Source: Pseudomonas phage HHBS18_1. Taken from it: 64,000 nucleotides of DNA. This document shows, in pieces, positions 49,665 to 52,508 of the stretch. The notes under the pieces were generated by a model. That model was given only the letters and a program-made list of their open reading frames with translations, was not told where the DNA came from and made no database searches. The stretch lies in the sequence record PQ287651.1; one strand, given 5' to 3'. The first letter of the stretch is position 1. Every line of letters starts with the position of its first letter. A program made the translations under genes and the position numbers.

Positions 49665-50084
49665 TTATAGCTTCACAGAGAAGCGATTCCGCATTGCTTC
49701 CATGGTGTTCTCAGGCACGTCGTGTACAGACTTGTTCCCGTGGCGATTCTCAACAATCAGAGAGATAACAGTATAGCCAAACTCTTCGGCCATGTCAATG
49801 TAAGGCTTGATCTCCCGTTCCCGAGTCCCGGTGTTGGATACGATCACTGCATCATACTTAACCACCTCCATTGCCTCTCTGGCACGCTCCATGCACTTCC
49901 TGTGTGCCCCTGCCACGCGCTCAGGCCTCCATACATACTCTCCTTCTTCCATCAGGAAGTGGTCTGCTTCGCAGATTACAGCGTTGCCCCCGGCGGCCCA
50001 AGTCCTATCGTTTAGGATTCGGGCGAGGTTGGACTTCCCGGAGCCCGGGAGTCCTCGAATGATATACATGATCTTTTCTTGCAT
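49665..50084 (-). CDS. polynucleotide 5'-kinase domain protein (T4 Pnk kinase-like P-loop)
   Basis: IIRGLPGSGKSN Walker A; VIVSNTGT...GYTV...HDVPENT parallels T4 Pnk VIISDTNL...GWKV...FDVPWTEL. Confidence 0.65.
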   Translation of the reverse strand: MQEKIMYIIRGLPGSGKSNLARILNDRTWAAGGNAVICEADHFLMEEGEYVWRPERVAGAHRKCMERAREAMEVVKYDAVIVSNTGTREREIKPYIDMAEEFGYTVISLIVENRHGNKSVHDVPENTMEAMRNRFSVKL

Positions 50085-50094
50085 ACTTCCTCCT

Positions 50095-51012
50095 TTAAAT
50101 TCGAGCCATATCGAAGTAGGTTTCGATCAGAAGTCGTCGCTGTGCATCGGTCATTTCTGAGAACCGAGCCTCATCCACTTCATTTACCAAGAAGTCTACC
50201 AGAGGATAGAACTCTTCGTCAAGCGTCTGCTTGAATCCAGCCGGGTCTTGGTACATCGCATTGACCTTCTTACTACCCATCCTCATGATAAACTTCTTGC
50301 CGAGGTAGTGAGTTGACTTGCACTTCACTGTCCCTAGCCCTGTTTGTACCATGTAACCTTCTTTCTCACAAGAACTCAGAAGACCCTTTGCATGTTCCCA
50401 GCTACACTCTATGTGCTCTGGACGAAGAATCTTTACAGAACTGTGGTCCGTTACACCTAGGACGTGAGAGTCAAGAATATATTCTGAAAGCTGGCCCCCA
50501 GTGAAGATATCGCGGATACCGATCAAATATGCCCCTTCTTCTTCCTCGACAATGTGAGGGTCGTCTGGAGAGCATATCTCGAAGTTATATGTGAAGCCTG
50601 CGATGTAATCATCTGGGTTATTCGACACATACTTCTGACCAAGGGCAACGTAATCGCTGGTCAATGACCCCGTAGTACTGAAGATAAGGGAGCCATTGTG
50701 CTTAGTCACGGAGAACATGAATCCATTCACTTTCTCAATCAGCCGCACACGGAATTTAGGATGGAGGAAACTCCCAGCACCATTCTCTCCCAGATTAAAC
50801 ACCTTCTCGAAGGGGCGTACAATACAATCGCCGGAGTGCTGGTCAAATACATGACCCCGTGCCTCCAGAAGGAGCGGATGCTCATTCCACAGGTTCTCGT
50901 AGAACACCTTCCGGGCATACTTTATAATCGACATACCGTTGAAGTGCTTAACAGTCACCAGCTTATTAGCGATCAGGTCTTTGTACATTGCAATGTTGAG
51001 ATTACCTTCCAT
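50095..51012 (-). CDS. RNA ligase 1 family (T4 RnlA-like)
   Basis: LEARGHVF/RPFEKVFNLGENG matches T4 Rnl1 ECRGIMF/RPMEKFFNLNENP; motif I VTKHNGSL (compare KEDGSL). Confidence 0.7.
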   Translation of the reverse strand: MEGNLNIAMYKDLIANKLVTVKHFNGMSIIKYARKVFYENLWNEHPLLLEARGHVFDQHSGDCIVRPFEKVFNLGENGAGSFLHPKFRVRLIEKVNGFMFSVTKHNGSLIFSTTGSLTSDYVALGQKYVSNNPDDYIAGFTYNFEICSPDDPHIVEEEEGAYLIGIRDIFTGGQLSEYILDSHVLGVTDHSSVKILRPEHIECSWEHAKGLLSSCEKEGYMVQTGLGTVKCKSTHYLGKKFIMRMGSKKVNAMYQDPAGFKQTLDEEFYPLVDFLVNEVDEARFSEMTDAQRRLLIETYFDMARI

Positions 51013-51023
51013 CCTACTTCTCC

Positions 51024-51431
51024 TTATTTCAATTCGACAATTGGGCAGAATTTAGCCTTCTTTGCCTTTAGATACGATACCAGAATCCCATCCTTGCTGG
51101 ACGATTTACTCGACATAAAGCGAGAGAATCGGTAGAAAACCCACACGCCATAAAAGACGGCGATGATTCCAATCCATACAAACCCCATGACAGCCAGAGT
51201 CCCACCTAGAACATATCCGGTAAGTGGACCGAGAGCCAGAGAATACAATACAGAGCCTACAACAGCAGCGAGCGCTACAACCGTTAACGCCAGCCACACG
51301 ACGAGGAATACTGTCTGCCAGAAATAAGAGCAGAGGGTTACAATTTGCCAACCGCTTGAGATAGCCGAATAGACCGGGGTCTCGAACGTACGATGGAGCC
51401 GCATATGCCACGAATTCTTATCAATCTTCAT
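51024..51431 (-). CDS. membrane protein (4 TM)
   Basis: hydrophobic ORF. Confidence 0.45.
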   Translation of the reverse strand: MKIDKNSWHMRLHRTFETPVYSAISSGWQIVTLCSYFWQTVFLVVWLALTVVALAAVVGSVLYSLALGPLTGYVLGGTLAVMGFVWIGIIAVFYGVWVFYRFSRFMSSKSSSKDGILVSYLKAKKAKFCPIVELK

Positions 51432-51703
51432 GCTTGTTCCTCCGGGAAGATGTTGAAGTTAAGTACGTTATGCTCTTCAAGTTCCATGGAGGCTACCATC
51501 TTATAACCTCCGAGCTTGTGAACGATCTCCAGTATACTCTCAATAGAGAATTTGTCAACATGCTGCTTCATCAGATTGGAGATTCGGCTCTGATGGGTTC
51601 CACACCGCTCTGCCACTTCCCGTTGAGTCAGCCCAGACTGAGTGATGTAGTGTGCAGCAACAACCATTACAGTTTTCTTGAAATCCTTGACCGGATCATT
51701 CAT
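51428..51703 (-). CDS. XRE-family helix-turn-helix transcriptional regulator
   Basis: LTQREVAERCGTHQSRISNL. Confidence 0.6.
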   Translation of the reverse strand: MNDPVKDFKKTVMVVAAHYITQSGLTQREVAERCGTHQSRISNLMKQHVDKFSIESILEIVHKLGGYKMVASMELEEHNVLNFNIFPEEQA

Positions 51704-51704
51704 G

Positions 51705-51941
51705 TTAGTCCTCCTTATTGCTCAGCGTTACTTTGCCATCGAATACTCGGAATTGAGCGATCTCAAACTGATCCGTCCAGCGGGCGTCCTCGAAAGCCAC
51801 TCCTTCAAAAGTCCCGTCTTGTTTAACATCAGAAGTCATGAGGACGATAAAAGGAACTCCGTCGTCATGGATCAGTTCCACCAGAGTGTTAGCTTTAGGT
51901 TTAACATCCTCCTTGTCACGCGAAATCAACACATTGACCAT
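51705..51941 (-). CDS. hypothetical protein
   Basis: ORF. Confidence 0.4.
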   Translation of the reverse strand: MVNVLISRDKEDVKPKANTLVELIHDDGVPFIVLMTSDVKQDGTFEGVAFEDARWTDQFEIAQFRVFDGKVTLSNKED

Positions 51942-51953
51942 TCTTTCCTCCTT

Positions 51954-52508
51954 TTATTTATGGTGGTCTACAACCACAAACTCTTGCTCTCGCATATATT
52001 CCCTCACTTCGTCGTAAGAGAATACCTGATGGTCCGGGTGATTGTCAATACCTACATCAAGCCGCTTACCCTTGGAAGGCAGGCTACCGTGAGTGTGACC
52101 ATGCAGGTGCCAAGCGCCATGATGAGCGGTATTCCACGTCTCGAAAGGATAGTGGCACATGACGATCTTAACTCCGTCGATCCTCACTTCCTTATAGTCT
52201 CGGATATCTTCGACGTGCGATAGATTACTGTCTTCAATCAGTTTCCACAGTCGGCTATCGCAGTGGTTACCCTTGAGGAAGGTGATCCGACCGTTCAACT
52301 GTCTAATGATATCCAGTACAGCTTGCAGCTTGTTCTTACCTGCGAAAGCGAAATCACCTAAGTGATACACTTCATCCCGAAGACGGACCCGAGAGTTCCA
52401 CCGAGAGATAAGCTCCTCGGTCTGCTCCTCGAAAGTCCACGGCCTGTTGCAATACTCGATCACATTCTTATGGAAGAAGTGTAGATCGGAAGAGAAAAAT
52501 ACAGACAT
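51954..52508 (-). CDS. metallophosphoesterase (candidate RNA 3'-phosphatase/2',3'-cyclic phosphodiesterase of the repair set)
   Basis: SDLHFFH, LGDFA, GNHC, HGHTH metal-binding motifs. Confidence 0.6.
   Translation of the reverse strand: MSVFFSSDLHFFHKNVIEYCNRPWTFEEQTEELISRWNSRVRLRDEVYHLGDFAFAGKNKLQAVLDIIRQLNGRITFLKGNHCDSRLWKLIEDSNLSHVEDIRDYKEVRIDGVKIVMCHYPFETWNTAHHGAWHLHGHTHGSLPSKGKRLDVGIDNHPDHQVFSYDEVREYMREQEFVVVDHHK

Follow-up and report, generated by a model that had tools for sequence, protein, structure and literature searches.

Three genes of Pseudomonas phage HHBS18_1 probably encode a split pathway for the healing and sealing of RNA ends, which would work like T4 Pnkp and Rnl1, a reading to which we give a probability of roughly 0.6. 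The genes, which code for a small P-loop kinase, an Rnl1-family RNA ligase and a metallophosphoesterase (MPP), recur jointly, and sometimes fused, in many unrelated phages, and they therefore most likely serve to mend RNAs such as tRNAs that have been cut by bacterial defences. A sequence-only reading of the same DNA had proposed a T4-like pathway in a different domain arrangement, with a separate Pnk-like kinase, Rnl1 ligase and MPP. This proposal is supported by the match of the ligase family profile to T4 Rnl1 (E 7e-30), by gene linkage, by kinase::Rnl1 and MPP::kinase fusions, and by a cassette that combines an Rnl1-like gene with an MPP::kinase gene.

Organization of the locus

The window (the whole 64,000-nucleotide stretch of record PQ287651.1) comes from a Pakpunavirus, a P. 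aeruginosa myovirus with ~96% identity to JG004 and C2-10_Ab1; the same phage carries 15 tRNA genes. The putative RNA-repair set lies entirely on the minus strand and comprises the genes for the 139-aa kinase (49665-50084), the 305-aa ligase (50095-51012), a 135-aa membrane protein (51024-51431), a 91-aa HTH_37/XRE protein recognized by Pfam and PHROG matches (51428-51703), the product of a 78-aa ORF (51705-51941) and the 184-aa MPP (51954-52508). The kinase, ligase, MPP, XRE and membrane genes are present where the sequence-only reading had placed them. The 78-aa ORF was absent from that reading, and three ORFs, not two, intervene between the MPP and ligase genes. Only 10 nt separate the ligase stop from the kinase start, and 9 nt the kinase stop codon from the start of Adps (48780-49655), which together with Namat (46826-48508) represents the NARP1 pathway of NAD+ reconstitution. 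The set sits in a leftward accessory gene arm amid other counter-defence genes, which include the NARP1 genes, a Macro domain protein and an alarmone-hydrolase-like HD protein. A phage ATP-dependent DNA ligase (54586-55794) is encoded ~2-4.5 kb upstream, its region being divided from the set by a strong terminator-like hairpin (54093-54071).

Predicted activities of the three proteins

The 139-aa P-loop protein is predicted to be a standalone 5'-OH polynucleotide (RNA) kinase. It matches PF13671 AAA_33 (30.4 bits, cut-off 27), phrog_2071 and, with an E value of 3e-6, the 'polynucleotide kinase' family phrog_505, and its predicted overall fold is closest to polynucleotide kinases. The P-loop GLPGSGKS spans residues 11-18, with G14, G16 and K17 invariant and K17/S18 aligned with T4 K15/S16. 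D41, a candidate catalytic Asp that is invariant among 39 homologues, aligns with the T4 general base D35. An ENRH motif (112-115) is invariant, and for the basic residues of the T4 lid region, the invariant R114 aligns with T4 R122 and K118 with T4 R126. No residue of the kinase is aligned with T4 Pnk R38, the Arg that binds the 3' phosphate of the acceptor, as the T4 segment that holds R38 is an insertion compared with the family; an invariant R10 just ahead of the P-loop might replace it. Two downstream blocks of T4 Pnk had also been recognized in the window protein, and of these SNTGT does align with T4 SDTNL, whereas HDVP aligns with T4 KAVP (129-132) and not with FDVP. No HAD (DxDxT) 3'-phosphatase domain is fused at the C-terminus of this single-domain protein. 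The family is large, with more than 2000 homologues, mostly of 125-150 aa.

The 305-aa protein is, judged from its sequence, an Rnl1-family ATP-dependent RNA ligase with all nucleotidyltransferase motifs, its activity being predicted. It exceeds the Pfam gathering score of PF09511 RNA_lig_T4_1 (39.3 bits, cut-off 28.3) and matches phrog_562 (E 1e-66), but it reaches only 30.2 bits against the NCBIfam equivalog TIGR02308 (T4 RnlA), far under the cut-off of 242.25 bits, and it is thus a member of the Rnl1 family and not an equivalog of T4 RnlA. The family profile aligns with T4 Rnl1 (PDB 2c5u) over T4 residues 33-284, and the resemblances pointed out earlier, EARGHVF to ECRGIMF and RPFEKVFNLGENG to RPMEKFFNLNENP, are reproduced by phmmer against the same structure. 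The earlier assignment of motif I to KHNG proved to be wrong: the lysine of KHNG (K104) is not conserved, and a natural fusion has WYNG at that site. Motif I is formed by K94 and G97 in EKVNG, which aligns with T4 TKEDG (K99, G102). Both residues are invariant in 20 homologues, as are R52, G53, K70, N73, E76 and the residues of motifs III, IV and V, namely E145, E218-G219, K230 and K232, whose T4 counterparts are E159, E227-G228, K240 and K242. R52 and K70, together with the nearly invariant F72, correspond to T4 R54, K75 and F77, which we take to be the Rnl1-specific essential N-terminal residues; T4 K119 is aligned with a Thr. The protein consists of a nucleotidyltransferase domain and a short C-terminal region, and it is 69 aa shorter, at the C-terminus, than T4 Rnl1 (374 aa), where an all-helical C-terminal domain (~residues 255-374) confers tRNA specificity. 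The ~70-aa C-terminal region of the window ligase is conserved inside the phage family, but since the profile alignment ends at T4 residue 284 the tRNA-specificity domain of T4 is not demonstrably present in it.

The 184-aa MPP matches Metallophos_2 (33.9 bits, cut-off 27) and phrog_547 (E 8e-62). The complete set of metal ligands that had been reported for it is confirmed, all binuclear motifs being located and conserved (D8-x-H10, G51-D52, G80-N81-H82, H119 and G137-H138-x-H140), and the phage MPP proteins share in addition a conserved C-terminal DHH. The protein belongs to the uncharacterised aq_1665 clade, and its closest structural relatives are uncharacterised proteins or phosphodiesterases and nucleases. 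No specific sequence or structure kinship was found with the CthPnkp/lambda phosphatase clade of the bacterial Pnkp phosphatase. The likeness to the bacterial Pnkp phosphoesterase drawn earlier extends to the binuclear motifs and to the coupling of its relatives to kinase and ligase, but not to the clade. As a precedent for the chemistry, the metallophosphoesterase-fold enzymes CthPnkp and lambda phosphatase cleave 2',3'-cyclic phosphates (PMC2190708, PMC3675462). The MPP of the window is predicted to be a 2',3'-cyclic-phosphodiesterase/3'-phosphatase that heals the RNA 3' end.

Linkage and fusion across phages

The neighbourhood of the kinase was compared in 80 viral contigs encoding kinases with 40-75% identity to that of the window. 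Unbiased clustering of the neighbours identified MPP as the top neighbour family: a homologue is found in 40 of the 80 loci, on the kinase's strand in all 40, at most 2.1 kb away in 39 of them, and overlapping or abutting the kinase gene in 16, which come from several phage lineages and show both gene orders. After collapsing the kinases at 70% identity into 30 clusters, each with 3 kb or more of flank, MPP was found in 12 clusters and an RNA ligase in 13, with both in 11, MPP only in 1, ligase only in 2 and neither in 16 (Fisher p = 1.5e-5 for the co-occurrence, the clusters being imperfectly independent). About half of the kinase loci carry neither MPP nor ligase. RNA ligases of two families, Rnl1-like and Rnl5-like, accompany the kinase-MPP pair, and the gene orders (K, kinase) comprise MPP..Rnl1-K, MPP-Rnl1-K, MPP-K-Rnl1, MPP-K-Rnl5, K-MPP..Rnl5 and Rnl1..MPP-K. 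In the reciprocal set, formed by the 80 viral loci whose MPP is closest to that of the window, the commonest neighbours are the kinase (21 loci) and the Rnl1-like ligase (19), and more than half of the loci have neither a kinase nor an RNA ligase within 10 kb. The same triad occurs in the cultured phages YP-6 (an E. coli Vequintavirus) and Aci05 (an Acinetobacter Saclayvirus), and 622 genome records of cultured phages contain the kinase family and 1304 the MPP family. Among 80 loci from bacterial and archaeal genomes, the kinase is almost always alone, in unrelated contexts.

The linkage extends to gene fusion. A 421-aa protein (locus L086) joins the kinase to an Rnl1-like ligase, and a 359-aa protein (L245) joins MPP to the kinase. 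Full-length MPP::kinase fusions form at least 11 protein clusters that span at least three diverged groups, and all eight of those scanned match both profiles. In one locus (L251) just 2 nt lie between an Rnl1-like gene (hhalign E 4e-56) and the MPP::kinase gene downstream of it (E 2e-45 for the MPP part), and in another (L252) the MPP::kinase fusion adjoins an NMNAT-Nudix gene.

The other genes embedded in the set behave differently. The sequence-only reading had included the XRE regulator and a 4-TM protein in the set, and both do lie inside it (the membrane protein is hydrophobic over ~residues 28-102, i.e. 3-4 helices), but they are not conserved with it: homologues of each are found near the kinase in one of the 80 loci, and those of the 78-aa ORF in three. 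By this comparison, all three genes between the MPP and ligase genes are lineage-specific, the XRE and membrane genes being inserts outside the conserved set.

The window encodes a second RNA ligase 47 kb from the set (2119-3255, minus strand), a 378-aa protein of Rnl5-like architecture that combines an N-terminal OB fold (PF21189, E 1e-29) with a nucleotidyltransferase domain (PF09414, E 1.6e-17) and has 96.8% identity to PaAdele_098. This family stands in for, or joins, Rnl1 beside kinase-MPP pairs in other phages, with a member at most 10 kb from the kinase in 15-16 of the 80 loci; in three of them (L037, L068 and L022) the Rnl5-like gene comes 19-640 nt after an abutting or nearby MPP-kinase pair. 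The 378-aa protein may be an alternative sealing enzyme.

Proposed pathway and alternative explanations

In the pathway proposed here, a host ribonuclease, such as an anticodon nuclease or another metal-independent RNase activated by infection, would cut a tRNA or other RNA to leave a 2',3'-cyclic phosphate and a 5'-OH. The MPP would then open the cyclic phosphate and strip the phosphate to give a 3'-OH, a step suggested by the linked and fused genes and by what is known of the chemistry of this fold. The kinase would move a phosphate from an NTP onto the 5'-OH, as indicated by its T4-Pnk-like fold, its P-loop and a conserved Asp in the place of the general base. Finally, the ligase, adenylylated on K94, would pass AMP to the 5'-phosphate and seal the break, in keeping with the conservation of all essential nucleotidyltransferase residues of Rnl1. 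PrrC-cleaved tRNA-Lys as the substrate would be an extrapolation from T4. We also lean slightly towards a broader proposal, according to which the aq_1665-type MPP and the small kinase constitute a widespread phage analogue of Pnkp, made as two genes or as a fusion, that would prepare RNA ends with a 2',3'-cyclic phosphate and a 5'-OH for sealing by interchangeable Rnl1-like or Rnl5-like ligases and so counter RNA-cleaving immunity.

The kinase and ligase could form a repair pair by themselves, with the MPP as an independent accessory enzyme (e.g. a phosphodiesterase that destroys cyclic-nucleotide immune signals, a nuclease or a nucleotide phosphatase) that merely shares their counter-defence neighbourhood. 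This is unlikely, even if the MPP is about twice as widespread as the kinase in cultured phages, lacks both partners in more than half of its own loci, has as its closest structural relatives uncharacterised proteins or phosphodiesterases and nucleases, and in the window has three unrelated genes between itself and the ligase. The same-strand abutment or overlap with the kinase in several lineages and in both orders, the full-length fusions in diverged groups, one of them directly downstream of an Rnl1-like ligase, and the strong correlation between MPP and ligase around the kinase all speak against it. It is very unlikely that kinase and MPP heal DNA ends (5'-OH, 3'-phosphate) for the phage DNA ligase, in DNA repair or in protection from host nucleases. 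T4 Pnkp does accept DNA in addition to RNA, the high-scoring structural neighbours of the MPP include several DNA nucleases, and a DNA ligase is encoded within ~5 kb of the kinase in 7 of the 80 loci, is the third commonest MPP neighbour (15 of 80) and is also found nearby in YP-6. However, this co-occurrence is mostly limited to relatives of the present phage lineage, the terminator-like hairpin parts the DNA ligase region from the set, and fusion and tight adjacency involve RNA ligases (Rnl1 and Rnl5 types) and not the DNA ligase.

The closeness of the kinase gene to Adps, the presence of Adps or Namat no more than 10 kb from the kinase in about 10 of the 80 loci, the MPP::kinase fusion beside an NMNAT-Nudix gene and one phage record that names the kinase locus 'nicotinamide-nucleotide adenylyltransferase' would suit a kinase, and possibly an MPP, belonging to NARP1, for instance by phosphorylating nicotinamide riboside or ADP-ribose or by feeding that pathway through a phosphatase activity; we consider such membership highly improbable. 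It is likewise improbable, though less remote, that the recurrent siting with Adps, Namat, Macro/Adpp and NMNAT-Nudix reflects a coupling of RNA repair to NAD+/ADP-ribose metabolism and not mere clustering of counter-defence genes. Least credible is a main role of the 305-aa protein in catalysing tail-fibre attachment, an activity that T4 gp63 (Rnl1) has as well, with a fortuitous adjacency to the kinase. PHROG 562 and many GenBank records do bear the name 'RNA ligase and tail fiber protein attachment catalyst', but this name goes back to T4, the gene is sited in the accessory/early arm and not with the tail genes, the catalytic residues are all invariant, and the ligase family is fused to the kinase in L086.

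Significance

A growing number of bacterial defences that cut tRNAs or other RNAs is being discovered, and to our knowledge T4 Pnkp with Rnl1 is almost the only repair answer of a phage that has been studied experimentally. The three-gene set is a variation on that known pathway and no conceptual surprise. If the split repair pathway is real, it would represent a second, modular architecture of phage RNA repair, with a standalone kinase, a metallophosphoesterase replacing the HAD phosphatase and swappable ligases, and the aq_1665 metallophosphoesterase clade would gain its first function. The families occur in genera used for therapy (Pakpunavirus, Vequintavirus and Saclayvirus), and the pathway would predict which therapeutic phages escape RNA-cleaving defences. 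The linkage and fusion evidence is new here, the idea of tRNA repair by kinase plus ligase in Pakpunavirus having been published in 2025 (PMC12846349); for calcineurin-like phosphoesterases, a role in the repair of RNA by phages has been put forward in a general way (PMC7824862).

Comparison with known RNA repair systems

In T4, where Pnkp (PseT) and Rnl1 (RnlA, gp63) repair PrrC-cleaved tRNA-Lys, the kinase carries a fused HAD phosphatase, whereas the window kinase stands alone and the presumed 3'-end healer is a separate binuclear metallophosphoesterase. T4 Pnk R38 and T4 Rnl1 K119 are not conserved in the window proteins, and the ligase lacks 69 aa of the T4 length. Mucorales fungi have split tRNA-splicing enzymes too, with a separate RNA ligase, 5'-OH kinase and phosphodiesterase, but theirs is a eukaryotic housekeeping system. 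The fungal cyclic phosphodiesterase is of another kind (Trl1 type, 2H superfamily) and leaves a 2'-phosphate for removal by Tpt1, and no Tpt1 was identified in this analysis. Aquifex aeolicus aq_1665 (PDB 1xm7), the metallophosphoesterase that gives the window MPP its clade, is uninformative about the substrate because no function has been assigned to it.

A close published case is Pseudomonas phage Adele, another Pakpunavirus, whose orthologues are annotated as 'putative 5'-polynucleotide kinase' (PaAdele_025), 'RNA ligase' (PaAdele_026) and 'phosphoesterase' (PaAdele_030). It was proposed there that cut tRNA is mended by the kinase together with two RNA ligases, and the kinase was noted to be without a 3'-phosphatase domain; the phosphoesterase was not tied to the pathway, and no comparative or experimental support was given (Viruses 2025, PMC12846349). 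Pnkp/Hen1 of Clostridium thermocellum and Pnkp1-Rnl-Hen1 of Capnocytophaga gingivalis are also among the closest known RNA repair systems. The window MPP lies outside their phosphatase clade, and no methyltransferase that could represent the 2'-O-methyltransferase partner Hen1 is annotated in the orthologous Adele region. In bacterial Pnkp the phosphatase module is coupled to kinase and ligase; the window proteins are separate, but their relatives include MPP::kinase fusions, one of which lies beside an Rnl1-like ligase.

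Organization of the locus

The metallophosphoesterase (MPP), the P-loop kinase and the Rnl1-family ligase, hereafter the triad, lie within a long run of minus-strand genes in a region where GC skew is negative from ~40 to 60 kb. The segment 49000-53500 shares 93-97% identity with more than 100 members of Pakpunavirus, a genus of P. aeruginosa myoviruses, among them vB_PaeM_C2-10_Ab10/Ab1 and JG004. The ORFs were recovered at exactly the coordinates claimed in the sequence-only reading. In transcription order, the 184-aa MPP (51954-52508; Pfam Metallophos_2) is followed by a 78-aa ORF (51705-51941), a 91-aa HTH_37/XRE protein (51428-51703), a 135-aa membrane protein (51024-51431), the 305-aa ligase (50095-51012; RNA_lig_T4_1) and the 139-aa kinase (49665-50084; AAA_33), all on the minus strand. 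Each triad member exceeds the gathering score of its own Pfam family, and the PHROGs families agree. Directly downstream of the kinase, on the same strand, there is a complete NAD+ reconstitution set (46143-49655) formed by a Prs-like Adps (48780-49655), a 72-aa ORF, a NAMPT-like Namat (46826-48508), a 65-aa ORF and a Macro-domain protein (46143-46622), the last scoring 22.1 bits in Pfam against a cut-off of 22 and matching the phrog_335 'phosphatase' family with an E value of 1e-60. Two genes upstream of the MPP lies a 186-aa HD-domain protein (52929-53489, minus strand; phrog_990) with weak matches to SpoT/RelA hydrolases, labeled 'small alarmone hydrolase' in phage Adele. Just upstream, on the minus strand, lie the genes for a DUF7390 protein (Pfam E 7e-31; 54109-54573) and for an ATP-dependent DNA ligase of 402 aa (54586-55794); the latter is likewise found within a few kb of the kinase in several related lineages.

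The minus-strand run begins near 60.2-60.9 kb at a divergent pair of sigma-70-like promoters that are perfect or near-perfect in a consensus scan (60185-60158, minus; 60862-60889, plus), promoter-like matches inside coding regions having been disregarded as uninformative. A strong terminator-like hairpin (54093-54071, minus strand; 9 bp stem with 7 GC pairs and a T-rich tail) sits between the DUF7390 gene and a SleB-like gene. The hairpin and the promoters, the only signals of the scan that look meaningful, together suggest that the triad belongs to a leftward transcription unit running from ~54.05 kb down to Namat. On the plus strand, 15 tRNA genes occupy 61258-63941 (Gln, Arg, Lys-UUU, Leu, Ile, Asp, Met, Cys, Asn, Pro, Gly, Phe, Glu, His and Thr), so that a single phage combines replacement tRNAs with the predicted repair pathway.

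The ligase and the kinase

At the sequence level, the ligase matches to T4 Rnl1 quoted earlier were reproduced by phmmer against PDB 2c5u. The assignment of motif I to KHNG proved wrong, since K104 of this tetrapeptide varies and the true lysine is K94 in EKVNG, which pairs with T4 K99 and does not vary among homologues. In an alignment of 20 diverse homologues, the invariant residues are R52, G53, K70, N73, E76, K94, G97, E145, E218, G219, K230 and K232, and the conserved positions are the counterparts of those that we take, from mutational work, to be essential in T4 Rnl1 (R54, K75, F77, K99, G102, E159, E227, G228, K240 and K242). The family profile matches T4 Rnl1 with an E value of 7e-30 over T4 residues 33-284, its next matches being fungal tRNA ligases, and the protein scores far under the threshold of the NCBIfam equivalog for T4 RnlA. 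The conserved residues and the profile match, along with the missed equivalog score, identify the protein as a clear member of the Rnl1 family and not as an orthologue of T4 RnlA. Its length falls 69 aa short of that of T4 Rnl1, and a nearly invariant Thr replaces T4 K119 at the aligned position. The label 'tail fiber attachment catalyst' is a name inherited from T4. A 378-aa protein (2119-3255, minus strand), orthologous to PaAdele_098, is a second RNA ligase, of Rnl5-like architecture with an N-terminal OB fold (PF21189) and PF09414. It may serve other substrates; in other phages, its family adjoins kinase-MPP pairs.

The kinase belongs to a family of more than 2000 homologues, nearly all of them standalone proteins of 125-150 aa. 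Across 39 homologues, R10, the P-loop residues G14/G16/K17, D41, an ENRH motif (112-115) and R134 are invariant. Comparison by hhalign with the T4 Pnk kinase, using a sequence identical to PDB 1ly1, gave a probability of 97.2% (E 3.6e-11) and paired K17/S18 with K15/S16, D41 with the general base D35, and R114 with R122; no counterpart of T4 R38 was found in this alignment. The alignment also bears out the parallel of the window SNTGT with T4 SDTNL and contradicts the one drawn with T4 FDVP, the window HDVP being aligned with T4 KAVP. Further structural matches of the kinase are the tRNA kinase PSTK, the kinase domain of Clostridium thermocellum Pnkp (CthPnkp) and Pnkp1, while nicotinamide riboside kinases reach a score of only about 8.6.

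The metallophosphoesterase

As anticipated from the sequence, the MPP has all metal ligands, and the binuclear-metal motifs are invariant in the family alignment. Outside these canonical motifs, the family ends in a DHH tripeptide (residues 181-183) in which, within a 14-sequence set, D181 and H182 never vary and H183 is nearly invariant. This tripeptide persists in the consensus of a 30-sequence set; in P0260, an MPP::kinase fusion, it reads KHH and only both histidines are kept. The structure predicted from an alignment of database homologues (A4) is very confident (pLDDT 95.4). Neither sequence nor structure comparison supported placing the MPP in the CthPnkp/lambda phosphatase clade. Fold and sequence do not point to a substrate; the argument for the MPP as an RNA-end phosphatase comes from its genomic context. 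In other systems, HD domains are known RNA 2',3'-phosphoesterases, and by analogy the 186-aa HD protein is a candidate alternative healing enzyme; it was found with the MPP in 12 of 80 MPP loci, mainly in relatives of the window's lineage. The metallophosphoesterase-fold enzymes CthPnkp and lambda phosphatase are known to carry out 2',3'-cyclic/3' phosphate chemistry (PMC2190708, PMC3675462).

Conservation of the gene neighborhood

The genomic context was analyzed in 80 viral contigs with kinase relatives (mostly 40-54% identity), whose ORFs were searched with the window proteins. MPP homologues appear in 40 of these loci, in every case on the strand of the kinase, within 2.1 kb of it in 39 of the 40 and overlapping or abutting it in 16. 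Unbiased clustering of all ORFs near the kinase also ranked the MPP family first. Rnl1-like ligases are present in 18-19 loci, Rnl5-like ligases (OB fold plus PF09414) in 15-16, and Adps or Namat in about 10. Gene orders are shuffled, with K as the kinase: MPP..Rnl1-K-Adps, MPP-Rnl1-K, MPP-K-Rnl1, MPP-K-Rnl5, K-MPP..Rnl5 and Rnl1..MPP-K. When kinases were collapsed at 70% identity and a flank of at least 3 kb was required, 30 clusters remained, of which 12 had the MPP, 13 an RNA ligase, 11 both and 16 neither, an association with a Fisher p of 1.5e-5 for these incompletely independent units. The XRE and membrane proteins, earlier described as embedded in the set, each lie near the kinase in only 1/80 loci, and the 78-aa ORF was rejected as a conserved member of the module (3/80). 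Another 80 loci were anchored on the MPP; its commonest neighbors are the kinase and the Rnl1-like ligase, and more than half of these loci contain neither.

A freshwater phage contig (L002, ENA ERZ27247995, 8001-14570) carries, in this order, the kinase, a 310-aa protein and the MPP, and further along an Rnl5-like ligase and a protein with a cREC domain (PF20274), a domain for which others have predicted cyclic-phosphate processing. In 12 loci a member of the 310-aa family lies between the kinase and the MPP. The protein was dismissed as a divergent ligase, having no similarity to the window ligase and no Pfam match, and its sole PHROG match is an unknown family.

Cellular counterparts of the triad were also considered and rejected, given that the MPP accompanies the kinase in only 7 of 80 sampled bacterial/archaeal loci, several of them MAG contigs also carrying RNA ligases; in the remaining loci the kinase is alone in unrelated contexts. 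Within these samples, the triad therefore seems restricted to phage or phage-like contigs. The close cellular homologues of the kinase (33-47% identity) are common as solitary genes in Bacteroidota, Leptospira, Thalassospira, Vibrio and others, and no conserved partner was found among loci L169-L248. In ten Flavobacteriales loci, the kinase adjoins a translational-GTPase gene resembling, as judged by eye, release factor 3 (prfC).

Fusions and cultured phages

Physical fusions connect the members of the triad. A 421-aa protein (L086) joins the kinase (residues 5-131) to a full-length Rnl1-like ligase (129-417), and a 359-aa protein (L245) is an MPP::kinase fusion. A database search with the latter brought up full-length MPP::kinase fusions that fall into at least 11 clusters and represent at least three diverged groups, and all eight representatives scanned matched both family profiles. 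The phage contig L251, which also encodes QueC and a DNA polymerase of family B, has all three components in a two-gene cassette: the first gene product is homologous to the window ligase over its full length (hhalign E 4e-56), and 2 nt further on a second gene joins a full-length MPP homologue (E 2e-45) to the kinase. Among cultured phage records, the kinase family occurs in 622 and the MPP family in 1304. In the E. coli Vequintavirus YP-6, a kinase-MPP operon is divergent from an Rnl1 gene; a tRNA cluster lies 3.5 kb from these genes. In the Acinetobacter Saclayvirus Aci05 the order is Rnl1, kinase, small ORF and phosphohydrolase, then a second RNA ligase beside a Prs-like gene.

A proposed split healing-and-sealing pathway and its alternatives

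The observation is confirmed and its core interpretation, a split kinase/phosphoesterase/ligase repair set, is supported by comparative genomics with several details corrected. According to this model, the MPP would clear the 2',3'-cyclic or 3' phosphate from the RNA end, the kinase would phosphorylate the 5'-OH and the Rnl1-family ligase would seal the break. We assign the full three-enzyme model a probability of roughly 0.6, from homology, conservation, predicted folds and linkage, whereas activities, target RNA and phenotype are what we infer from them. Confidence is considerably higher for the pairing of kinase and ligase by itself. The pathway is readily testable.

Alternatively, the MPP could be an independent enzyme that only shares the neighborhood; its broader distribution than the kinase and its uninformative fold neighbors leave room for this, against which stand its fusions to the kinase and their tight co-directional adjacency. 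Because Pnk enzymes act on DNA, it is also possible that kinase and MPP heal DNA ends for the nearby DNA ligase, but it is RNA ligases that the kinase and MPP adjoin or are fused with. Participation in the neighboring NAD+ reconstitution pathway is improbable, given the Pnk-like fold of the kinase; the MPP was likewise rejected as the 'phage phosphatase' extending this pathway (NARP1), since the phosphatase experimentally shown to do so, Adpp, is a Macro-domain protein encoded here by its own separate gene. The vicinity of NAD+-restoring genes does recur in a Logan contig (L252, SRR28378879, 6001-8222), where a gene for NMN-adenylyltransferase-Nudix, an NAD+ salvage enzyme, directly follows that of an MPP::kinase fusion (P0244).

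Comparison with known systems

The split healing-and-sealing model has partial precedents. For the Pakpunavirus Adele, the orthologous kinase and two RNA ligases were proposed to repair cleaved tRNA, the lack of a phosphatase domain in the kinase was remarked upon, and the phosphoesterase was left unconnected to the pathway (PMC12846349). Iyer et al. (2021) stated in general terms that a few jumbo phages derive the phosphatase from calcineurin-like and HD domains (PMC7824862). Literature searches found no experimental work on the triad; Burroughs and Aravind (2016), outside these searches, may describe the pairing. The neighboring set at 46143-49655 corresponds to the published NARP1 with its associated phosphatase (NARP1-AP). 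By analogy, the triad would work like T4 Pnkp and Rnl1, and its predicted phosphatase has the metallophosphoesterase fold in common with those of bacterial Pnkp/Hen1 and Pnkp1-Rnl-Hen1. It differs in that its kinase is standalone, its MPP belongs to a different clade (that of the Aquifex protein aq_1665), and its ligase is either a short Rnl1 or an Rnl5-like substitute.
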